Source: an uncultured Gammaproteobacteria bacterium
GTDB taxonomy: Bacteria; Pseudomonadota; Gammaproteobacteria; JACCXJ01
Assembly (NCBI GenBank): GCA_963764725.1
Contig: CAVXTM010000018.1
Location: forward strand, 32,001 to 96,000
Length of the DNA: 64,000 bases
Direction of reading: 5' to 3'
A program made the position numbers and the translations under genes. The notes below the pieces were generated by a model, which saw nothing but the letters and a program-made list of their open reading frames with translations, searched no databases and was not told the DNA's origin. Positions 41,619 through 42,908 of this stretch are shown piece after piece; position 1 is the first letter of the stretch, and each line of letters starts with the position of its first letter.

Positions 41619-41707
41619 ACGCGCTAGTGTAGTGTCTGGTAAATAATTTACATAAAAGCGACTACAAAAATTCCCTCTCCCTCCCGGGAGAGCAACCGTG
41701 TTCAAAG

Positions 41708-42655
41708 TCAAGTGTTTTGCAGCTGCCAAGGGGCATTATTTTTCAACATGGCATTCATAATGGTCAGCAGTTTCCGCATACAGGCGACGATCACCACTTT
41801 GGCTGGTTTCCCCGCCTGTTTGAGTCTCTCAGCGAAGGCCTTGAGGACAGAGTTGCACCGGATGGCGGTAACGGTCGCCATATACAGAACGGCTCTGACA
41901 TCGGCCCTGCCGCCCCAGATGAAGCGCTTACCCCGGTGTTTTCCGCTGTCGTTCGCCAGCGGCGCCACGCCCACCAAAGCTGCGATCTCGCGGCGATTCA
42001 AGCTGCCGAGTTCCGGGCACTTAGCCAGCATCGTCAAGCTGGTGACGGCGCCGATACCAGGAATGCCTTGCAGCAGATCATCCTTAGCCCGCCAGGCCTC
42101 GGAGGCGCGCAAGCGTTTGGTCAAATCAACGTCGAGATCAGCAATGCGCTTATCCAGCCAAGCGATGTGCGCCACTAAGCTTTTGCGTGGCAGTTTCGAG
42201 GCCGTGCCTAAACGGAGTGTTTCTTGAACGCGTATCTCGATCAATTGACGGCGCCGCGTCAGGAGTTCATCAAGCTCACGGGTGTCCGCGTCCTTGATAG
42301 GTCGCACCGCAGGCCGGATGGCGCGGGCGAAGGCCGCCAGGACGGCGGCGTCAACCGAGTCGGTCTTCGCCAATTCTCCCGTCGCCTTGGCGAAATCGCG
42401 CGCTTGACGGGGATTGATGACGGCGAGGGGCAATCCTTTCGCCGCCAGTTCACTGGCCAGCCGCACTTCCAGGCCGCCTGTGGCTTCCATAACGATCAAC
42501 GTCGGTCCAACGGCCACCAGACGCTTGACGAGTTGAGCGATGCCCTTGTCGTCATAAACGACACGCAGGGCTTCTCCAGTGGGTTCAATACCAATATCCA
42601 ACGTGCCTTTGGACACATCAATGCCAACAAACTTCTCTACAGTGTTCTCGCTCAT
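41708..42655 (-). CDS. IS110 DEDD recombinase/transposase
   Basis: VGIDVSK, MEATG, KTDSVDA, GIPGIG and DSG..RGKR.I.GGR. Confidence 0.96.
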
Positions 42656-42908
42656 ACCCCTCCTTGCAAAAATACGGGCTTACAGGCCCCAGCAACCGTT
42701 CGGGTTGTCGGTGAGAAAACGGCGCGACGCTCTTTGCTCTCCCACGGGCTTGATGTCCCAAGGGCTGGACGAGCTGCCGCACCGCAACCAAAGGTCTGTG
42801 GATTGATGGGATAATCGCCGGCGGCGAACTTCTTTGCCCCACCACCCCCACAGACCGCAATACATTTTCATCAATGTCTACCAACAGAACCATACAAGAA
42901 CATACAAG
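42656..42908 (-). ncRNA. Predicted IS110 bridge RNA region
   Basis: Guides in the expected order on the minus strand: CCAGCCCT (42761-42768), GGGAGAG (42737-42743), ACGGTTGCT (42691-42699), GCAAG (42663-42667). Confidence 0.8.

Follow-up and report, generated by a model that had tools for sequence, protein, structure and literature searches.

Insertion sequences (ISs) of the IS110 group have a long left and a short right non-coding end and no long terminal inverted repeats, and those of the IS1111 group carry their RNA in a long right end, combined with a short left end and with inverted repeats (7-17 bp) that lie sub-terminally (Durrant et al. 2024, PMC11208160). For IS621 from Escherichia coli, the same account describes a bridge RNA in which a target-binding loop precedes a donor-binding loop and in which the guides include the core; a promoter split over the two ends is reported there for IS110 elements as well. 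In this article we discuss an element of 1218 bp (1216 bp when its CT core is counted once) that lies on the minus strand of a 64,000-nt stretch of DNA from an uncultured gammaproteobacterium, hereafter called the window. All coordinates given for the element, its guides and its target refer to this strand. With high confidence, we read the region as one copy of an IS110-group element whose movement relies on recombination guided by a bridge RNA.

As far as its sequence can tell, the element agrees with the IS110 bridge-RNA group in every respect tested. What is observed here comprises its anatomy, the site specificity of its copies, the co-variation between guides and DNA, the conservation of RNA stems and catalytic residues, and a promoter split between the two ends. 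The features are collected in Table 1.

Anatomy and insertion sites

The element is clearly asymmetric, as its left non-coding end measures 251 nt and its right one 15 nt. This is the layout of the IS110 group and not that of the IS1111 group, since the right end is too short for the latter and the RNA lies within the left end. The left junction reads ...CCCTCACCCTAGCC-CT-TGTATGTT (CT at 42908-42907) and the right junction ...GAACACGGTTG-CT-CTCCCGGGAGGGAGAGGG (CT at 41692-41691). Both junctions confirm the sequences that the initial annotation had reconstructed, namely CCTAGCC-CT-CTCCC for the target and ACGGTTG-CT-TGTAT for the donor junction. The short core is thus found at both ends of the element, and it is single in the empty site described below.

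Six copies of the element are present in the window's genome (G000; 4.2 Mb in 19 contigs). The open reading frame (ORF) of the recombinase is identical and open in four of them, one copy has an 8-bp deletion as well as a 1-bp insertion, and one is heavily decayed. The four intact copies have presumably been active recently. In all six, the right flank is CT-CTCCC, after which comes a hairpin's 3' arm (either GGGAGAGGG or a variant of it). The left flank is CCCTCACCCnnnCC-CT in four of the six (i.e., CCCTCACCC, three variable bases and CC-CT), the exceptions being a 5'-truncated copy and a degenerate, rearranged one; CT is therefore found at both ends in four copies and at the right end in all. 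The initial annotation had named copies at sites unrelated to the guides as the result that would speak against it. The copies do not show this: the right CT-CTCCC is shared by 6/6 copies and a left flank of the repetitive extragenic palindromic (REP) type by 4/6, and the four copies sit in the same REP-like palindrome.

The interrupted site is itself structured. Its right half, CTCCC-GGGA-GGGAGAGGG, forms a terminator-like hairpin, and the element has inserted within the 5' arm. Elsewhere in the genome (G000:C16, minus strand, offset 356038), an unoccupied repeat has the sequence CCCTCACCCTAGCCCTCTCCC; its CT is single, and it is exactly the predicted empty site. On both strands taken together, the genome holds 13 matches to CCCTCACCC-N3-6-CCTCTCCC and 24 matches to the hairpin CCTCTCCC-loop-GGGAGAGG. 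More arms of the same repeat family are found in the intergenic region directly upstream of the element (window 42924-43010), where CCTTCTCCC-TCCG-GGAGAAGG is followed by GGGATGAGGGG, and the latter complements CCCCTCACCC adjoining the insertion point. The repeat that houses the element is thus a composite of several hairpins.

The four guides of the bridge RNA

All four guide strings proposed in the initial annotation were found within the left end, at the places and in the order claimed. The left target guide (CCAGCCCT, 42768-42761) matches the element's own target at seven of eight positions, or at 7/9 when it is taken as the 9-nt UCCAGCC-CU, and GGGAGAG (42743-42737) is the exact complement of CT-CTCCC. 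The left donor guide (ACGGTTGCT, 42699-42691) is identical over nine nucleotides to the element's right end, and within the 2.4-kb locus this 9-mer occurs at these two places only. For the right donor guide the first description went too far: GCAAG is indeed present at 42667-42663, but it is not fully readable, as UGCAAG (42668-42663) pairs with CTTGTA through five Watson-Crick pairs and one G-T wobble. Relatives have ACAAG here, the perfect complement of CTTGT.

The arrangement is, as had been proposed, that of IS621, with the target loop on the 5' side, the donor loop after it and the left guide 5' in each. Within each loop the 5' side carries the top strand of the left half-site, and the core is part of all four guides. 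The first loop complements the target (left and right target guides, LTG and RTG), and the second complements the donor, which is the junction of right end and left end (RE-LE; left and right donor guides, LDG and RDG). The bases that follow the right guides fit as well. The CA after the right target guide complements donor positions 7-6 (TG), and target position 7 (C) has its complement in the G that follows the right donor guide; the handshake guides of IS621 occupy equivalent positions (Durrant et al. 2024, PMC11208160; Hiraizumi et al. 2024, PMC11208158). Because these bases are invariant among relatives, they are consistent with a handshake role rather than proof of it.

Co-variation of guides and DNA among relatives

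To collect relatives, one genome per species was scanned, yielding 66 loci. The 22 near-full-length loci were examined, and the other 44, which are fragments and mostly right-end stubs at contig ends, fall outside the analysis. The count for the right target guide covers the window element and 19 loci. It leaves out L030 (which repeats the element L027 of its own genome), L023 (with a degenerate right end) and L025, which has 3 nt of flank before the contig ends, all three matching. For L032 and L036 the right target guide was missed by the pattern and was read by eye.

Over the five bases after the core, the right target guides match their own right flanks at 87 of 100 positions: of the 20 elements, 11 agree throughout, 6 deviate at one position, 2 at two positions and 1 (L021) at three. 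Mismatched guide/flank pairs agree on average at 2.0 of 5 positions, and none of 100,000 permutations reaches 87. The 13 elements with a guide other than GGGAGAG match at 58 of 65 positions. Seven distinct guide sequences have a perfect flank, e.g., CUUGAAG with CT-TCAAG, GGGGCAG with CT-GCCCC and GGUUUAG with CT-AAACC.

The left target guide could be compared in the 16 elements with a readable left flank. Up to four registers were tried and the best one was counted, for own pairs as well as for mismatched ones. Here 73 of 112 positions match, or 84 of 112 when G-T and U-G wobbles are included; the average for mismatched pairs is 2.8 of 7, and the observed total is reached by 0/20,000 permutations. 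The matches are densest at positions -1 to -5. The donor side shows the same behavior. The left donor guide exists as ACGGUUG, ACAGUUG and ACAGUCG, and in each case the element's own right end carries the same variant in the seven bases that precede its terminal CT. This comparison is partly circular, since right ends were located by searching for the left-donor string; the string is found nowhere else in each locus and mostly ends 15 nt after a conserved TTGAC. Guides thus co-vary with both target and donor among the relatives, in line with the co-variation reported across thousands of IS110 orthologues (Durrant et al. 2024, PMC11208160).

Table 1 Features of the element and of its target in the window
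Feature	Coordinates	Strand	Basis
Complete IS110-group insertion sequence with both junction copies of the CT core	41691..42908	-	Six genomic copies and empty paralogous site
Left half of interrupted REP-like target (CCCCTCACCCTAGCC)	42909..42923	-	Sequence, copies, empty sites
Left CT core copy (junction of left target, CT and right donor)	42907..42908	-	Sequence read, copy comparison
-10 half TATGTT; promoter rebuilt only in the RE-LE circle junction	42899..42904	-	Sequence; equivalent hexamer in relatives
10-bp tandem duplication of core and right-donor half-site (CTTGTATGTT / CTTGTATGGT)	42889..42908	-	Sequence, copy comparison
Left non-coding end, 251 nt, encoding the predicted bridge RNA	42656..42906	-	Sequence, alignment, folding
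5' stem-loop of the bridge RNA, long form	42793..42856	-	Folding, copy comparison
Target-binding module; outer stem 42785-42771 with 42732-42720, inner hairpin UGGG...CCCG	42720..42785	-	Consensus fold, pair counts
Left target guide UCCAGCC-CU	42761..42769	-	Relatives' flanks, folding
Right target guide GGGAG-AG, then CA	42735..42743	-	Relatives' flanks; handshake role of CA putative
Donor-binding module; outer stem ACCC (42705-42702) with GGGU (42659-42656), inner hairpin GGGC...GCCC	42656..42705	-	Consensus fold, pair counts
Left donor guide ACGGUUG-CU, equal to the last 9 nt of the element	42691..42699	-	Sequence, relatives
Right donor guide UGCAAG, then GA	42661..42668	-	Sequence, alignment, folding
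Recombinase gene, 315 aa, RuvC-like DEDD domain and Tnp domain	41708..42655	-	ORF, domain profiles, alignment
-35 half TTGACT of junction promoter, overlapping the stop codon	41706..41711	-	Sequence, relatives
Right non-coding end, 15 nt, finishing in left-donor ACGGTTG	41693..41707	-	Sequence read
Right CT core copy (junction of left donor, CT and right target)	41691..41692	-	Sequence read, copy comparison
Right half of interrupted target	41673..41690	-	Sequence read

Structure of the bridge RNA

The structure of the RNA was compared by aligning 18 left-end cores, deriving a consensus fold and counting pairs explicitly. The stem that closes the target loop has 14 pairs, nine of which show compensatory changes; for the stem closing the donor loop this is the case for two of four pairs. 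Paired cells amount to 94.8%, versus 87.4% in shuffles and 29-49% in slid registers. Eleven pairs are changed on both sides, a number reached by 0/500 shuffles, though such shuffle counts are not probabilities because the aligned sequences are kin. A bridge RNA with two loops is therefore suggested by the comparison, strongly for the stem of the target module and more weakly for that of the donor module.

The initial annotation had called for a fold in which the guides lie in two internal loops. In single-sequence folding the stem of the target module and both inner hairpins do form, but the guides are not cleanly unpaired, a point to which we return when the reading as a whole is weighed. A weak match to Rfam sX15 on the opposite strand (E 0.68, far below the gathering score) was treated as chance.

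Recombinase and split promoter

The recombinase gene is intact, as had been claimed, with an open frame of 315 aa. Its product matches PF01548 (78.8 bits) and PF02371 (65 bits), i.e., an N-terminal DEDD domain and a C-terminal domain with a conserved Ser, which is the protein architecture of the IS110 group. It scores 203 bits against the NCBIfam equivalog NF033542 ('IS110 family RNA-guided transposase'), well above the cut-off of 140. In the alignment with the solved IS621 recombinase, which like that with ISCro4 covers almost the entire protein, D13, E57, D99, D102 and S237-G238 stand opposite D11, E60, D102, D105 and S241-G242, and the catalytic residues of IS621 are reported to be essential for recombination (Durrant et al. 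2024, PMC11208160; Hiraizumi et al. 2024, PMC11208158). A protein-cluster look-up returned a nameless cluster of one member.

Two promoter halves lie at opposite ends of the element. TTGACT starts its last 21 nt and TATGTT is found two bases past the left core, which leaves a spacer of 17 bp once the ends are joined. Both halves are present in 17 of 21 elements; two have no left-end data and two fail. A promoter scan of the integrated element, on both strands, gave no sigma-70-like match, which is what a split-promoter model predicts for the integrated state. The ends would thus appear to form a sigma-70-like promoter across the RE-LE junction, an arrangement that has been reported for IS110 elements (Durrant et al. 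2024, PMC11208160).

Next to the start of the gene, the AGGAGG ribosome-binding site falls within the stretch taken up by the right donor guide (42661-42668) and by the 3' strand of the stem of the donor module (42656-42660), a stretch that reaches up to the recombinase's ATG. Folding of the guide region, or its binding to DNA, could therefore influence translation of a read-through transcript.

Proposed mechanism

By analogy with IS621, the following course of events would account for these features. The DEDD/Ser recombinase would recombine the two CT cores and free a circle, in which the right end is joined to the left end and a sigma-70 promoter (TTGACT, 17-bp spacer, TATGTT) is created. 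From this junction promoter a left-end RNA of ~230 nt would be transcribed, consisting of a 5' stem-loop, a loop that binds the target and one that binds the donor. The target loop (5' UCCAGCC-CU, 3' GGGAG-AG) would pair with both strands of the repeat ..C(C/T)NRCC-CT-CTCCC, and the donor loop (ACGGUUG-CU, UGCAAG) with the RE-LE junction ACGGTTG-CT-TGTA. A recombinase tetramer would then exchange strands at CT, so that the element enters the 5' arm of the REP-like hairpin. From the anatomy and its likeness to described elements we infer that the RNA is transcribed, that circles are formed and that the window's enzyme is active and programmable.

A contig of the RNA-filed run X16 (record 15) covers 42697-42809 without differences. 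It is at most a weak hint of transcription, since DNA occurs in such libraries and contig depth cannot rank regions.

Weighing the evidence

Several observations count against guide-directed movement of this element, or at least fail to support it. On the DNA side, the exact 13-mer predicted from the guides does not occur in the genome (0 times), and the left target of the window copy agrees with the 7-nt guide at just 5/7 positions. The genome does hold 21 sites with at most one mismatch; with no exact 13-mer but this many near sites, the guide looks like a consensus that tolerates the variable positions of the repeat. The right donor guide, being short and including a G-T wobble, is the weakest of the four. 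Among the relatives, L021 matches its right flank at 2/5 positions, and the right end of L023 is degenerate. On the RNA side, both inner hairpins (GGG...CCC) are invariant across the 18 aligned sequences and the handshake positions never vary either, so neither receives support from co-variation, and a search of Rfam 15 gave no matching family. Finally, contigs of four public runs contain neither the circle junction nor an excision joint, although contigs drop rare forms and are a poor test.

The pairing of the guides with each other belongs to the same list. In single-sequence folding, the two target guides are predicted to pair through CCC in the left and GGG in the right one (P about 0.97). 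For GGUUG in the left donor guide, the predicted partner is either CAACC further upstream (P 0.38-0.83) or the right donor guide's GCAA. Such pairings follow from the palindromic target and from a TTG-C-TTG repeat in the donor. As relatives show no compensatory upkeep of the pairings concerned, we read them as competing weak helices and not as evidence against guide function. The CAACC/GGUUG hairpin in particular was rejected as a conserved feature: where the guide of relatives changes from G to A, the right end follows and the upstream C does not. A more speculative possibility is that the self-complementarity of the guides (CCC:GGG, UUGC:GCAA) holds the loops closed until DNA is bound.

Among the other explanations, the one that survives best accepts a genuine bridge-RNA element and holds that the window copy is an impaired or non-autonomous variant of it. 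Its altered left end might move the start of transcription or give rise to two left boundaries in competition. Such a copy may be poorly mobile, or may depend on sister copies to provide the RNA in trans. We regard this as unlikely. All differences between the window copy and its three intact sisters fall within the left end's first ~170 nt, where it has a 10-bp tandem duplication, a few substitutions and 28 extra nt at the tip of the 5' stem-loop. The duplication, already noticed in the initial annotation, consists of CTTGTATGTT (42908-42899) and CTTGTATGGT (42898-42889), which are identical at 9/10 positions, and among the six copies it is exclusive to this one. The second CTTGTATG unit falls at the expected transcription start of the junction promoter, which would favor impairment. 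Moreover, contigs of the DNA runs X1 and X2 and of the RNA-filed run X15 switch at 42808 to the short-hairpin form and lack the window form there; they show only that the short-hairpin form exists elsewhere.

On the other hand, neither the terminal CT-TGTATGTT nor the -10 hexamer in the first duplication unit differs from the sisters, and the guides and the ORF are identical to those of the other copies. The 28 nt at the stem-loop tip are absent from the other five copies, but the long hairpin resembles that of the relatives L011, L020 and L024. It therefore looks ancestral rather than damaged, and it is probably the sister copies that carry a deletion in this stem-loop.

A second explanation takes the left-end RNA to be mainly a cis-regulatory leader that hides the ribosome-binding site, or a small regulatory RNA, with the guide matches being remnants. 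The overlap of the right donor guide and the donor-module stem with AGGAGG, right up to the ATG, lends it some weight, as does the fact that the small RNAs of ISPpu9 were once thought to modulate recombinase expression (Durrant et al. 2024, PMC11208160). Remnants, however, would neither keep fixed structural positions nor track their own flanks in 19 relatives, and the left donor guide changes together with the right end rather than with the upstream bases of the alternative hairpin. We thus consider a purely regulatory RNA very improbable; regulatory and guide roles could nonetheless coexist.

That the guide/flank matches are due to chance, or are a by-product of low-complexity C/G-rich repeats, is effectively refuted by the permutation tests for both target guides and by the exact 9-mer that the left end shares with the right terminus and with no other part of the locus; AT-rich and mixed guides (GGUUUAG, CUUGAAG) match perfectly too. 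In favor of chance, a C-rich palindromic target makes the guides partly complementary to each other, and matches of 5-8 nt are individually weak.

Possible alternative boundaries and defective copies

Within the bridge-RNA reading, an RNA-guided system may sometimes use look-alike half-sites and thereby create alternative boundaries. We mention this as a speculative idea, with which two observations agree. First, the window copy has two right-donor half-sites in tandem (CT-TGTATG twice). Second, the degenerate copy at G000:C18:332585-333766 is enclosed by direct repeats of 198 bp that run from the core CT through tRNA-Val to GCGGT. This copy could be a natural footprint of excision, or of re-integration with flanking DNA as cargo.

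The latter case, a decayed sister (L006, region G000:C18:331085-335266), merits some detail. The direct repeats on either side of it (~198 bp, 97% identity) extend from the core CT and the right repeat half, via the gene for tRNA-Val(gac), to ...GGAAAGGTGCGGT. The tRNA-Val gene is consequently present twice, and the left direct repeat starts inside an intact repeat. The left IS junction (GCGGT/TGTATG) is without CT, and its GCGGT is similar to the left-donor ACGGTTG. A tandem duplication followed by excision of one copy could be behind this arrangement, or else the aberrant use of a look-alike half-site.

Another defective sister (L004/L009, G000:C10:250158-251313) has kept the recombinase gene and the guides intact and is without the first ~35-60 nt of the left end. 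The deletion removes the right-donor half-site. To judge from its sequence, such a copy could provide protein and RNA in trans but should be unable to move itself. A further gene of the IS110 family is found ~2.5 kb upstream of it, at C10:247262.

The genome contains more of these genes. At least four further kinds of IS110-family recombinase genes are present, at C11:179043, at C16:84392 and C16:93691, at C1:454811, and at C8:29049 and C10:247262. At L008 1480-1760 on the reverse strand (G000:C2, around 154600-154708) lies the left end of yet another IS110 relative; it has a separate set of guides and terminates in CT-TGTATC. An orphan bridge RNA was considered for this locus and rejected, as it comprises the left end and the first ~60 codons of that truncated relative. 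Beside the insertion in the window, at 43093-45026 on the plus strand, inspection by eye points to an ORF with a TIR-like N-terminus (MPRVFLNYRRDD...), overlapped by a long ORF with TPR-like repeats.

Comparison with described elements

IS621 shares most with the element. Both have a two-domain DEDD and Ser recombinase with all catalytic residues aligned, a CT core, a long left and a short right end, and a promoter rebuilt at the circle junction, as IS621 has been described. The described RNA of IS621 has the same order (5' stem-loop, target loop, donor loop) and the same polarity, in that the 5' guide represents the top strand and the 3' guide complements it. REP-type repeats are the reported insertion sites of IS621 too, and the bases at the handshake positions fit donor position 7 and target position 7. 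The differences are nonetheless considerable. The proteins are distantly related (123 bits, E 1.1e-34), and guides, target and donor sequences are all different. The RNA predicted here is longer (~230 nt versus the 177 nt described for IS621) and has a larger 5' stem-loop, the effective left target guide seems shorter (with matches at -1 to -5), and the guide halves can partly pair with each other. Moreover, the present element is known from its sequence alone.

Other elements are instructive as well. The best match among solved structures is the transposase of ISCro4 (PDB 9t56; E 1.7e-40, 142 bits, residues 8-311), which has the same domain layout but belongs to another element in another host. 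The elements ISPpu10 and ISPpu9 of Pseudomonas putida are described as IS110 elements residing in repeated intergenic palindromes (bioRxiv 10.64898/2026.03.19.712850; PMC12288879), and for ISPpu10 a stem-loop in the target is reported to add specificity (bioRxiv 10.64898/2026.03.19.712850). The element in the window resembles ISPpu10, by sequence only, in that the crossover lies in the 5' arm of a hairpin and adjoins a second inverted repeat (CCCTCACCC with the upstream GGGATGAGGGG). The nearest named element found is ISMno7 from plasmids of Methylobacterium nodulans, with 49.5% aa identity over 96% of the query. This is far below the level at which elements share a name, and a closer named element may exist.

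Significance

The initial annotation had presented the recombinase as a candidate new programmable orthologue with a different target. Membership of the IS110 group and the different target hold, but the element is one of very many, considering that bridge RNAs were predicted in 85.7% of IS110 elements (Durrant et al. 2024, PMC11208160), and the orthologue lists of that study may already include it or its relatives. Mechanism, architecture and the preference for REP targets have all been published, and the element poses no new question in that respect.

Its practical value is modest. It offers a compact bridge recombinase of 315 aa, distant from IS621, for which guides, target and donor can be written down directly. 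The ~19 relatives show which positions are free to vary, thus providing a starting point for testing orthologues in programmable DNA insertion. As for the biology of the host, the REP-like repeat family in this genome is the landing pad of an element that is, in all likelihood, RNA-guided.

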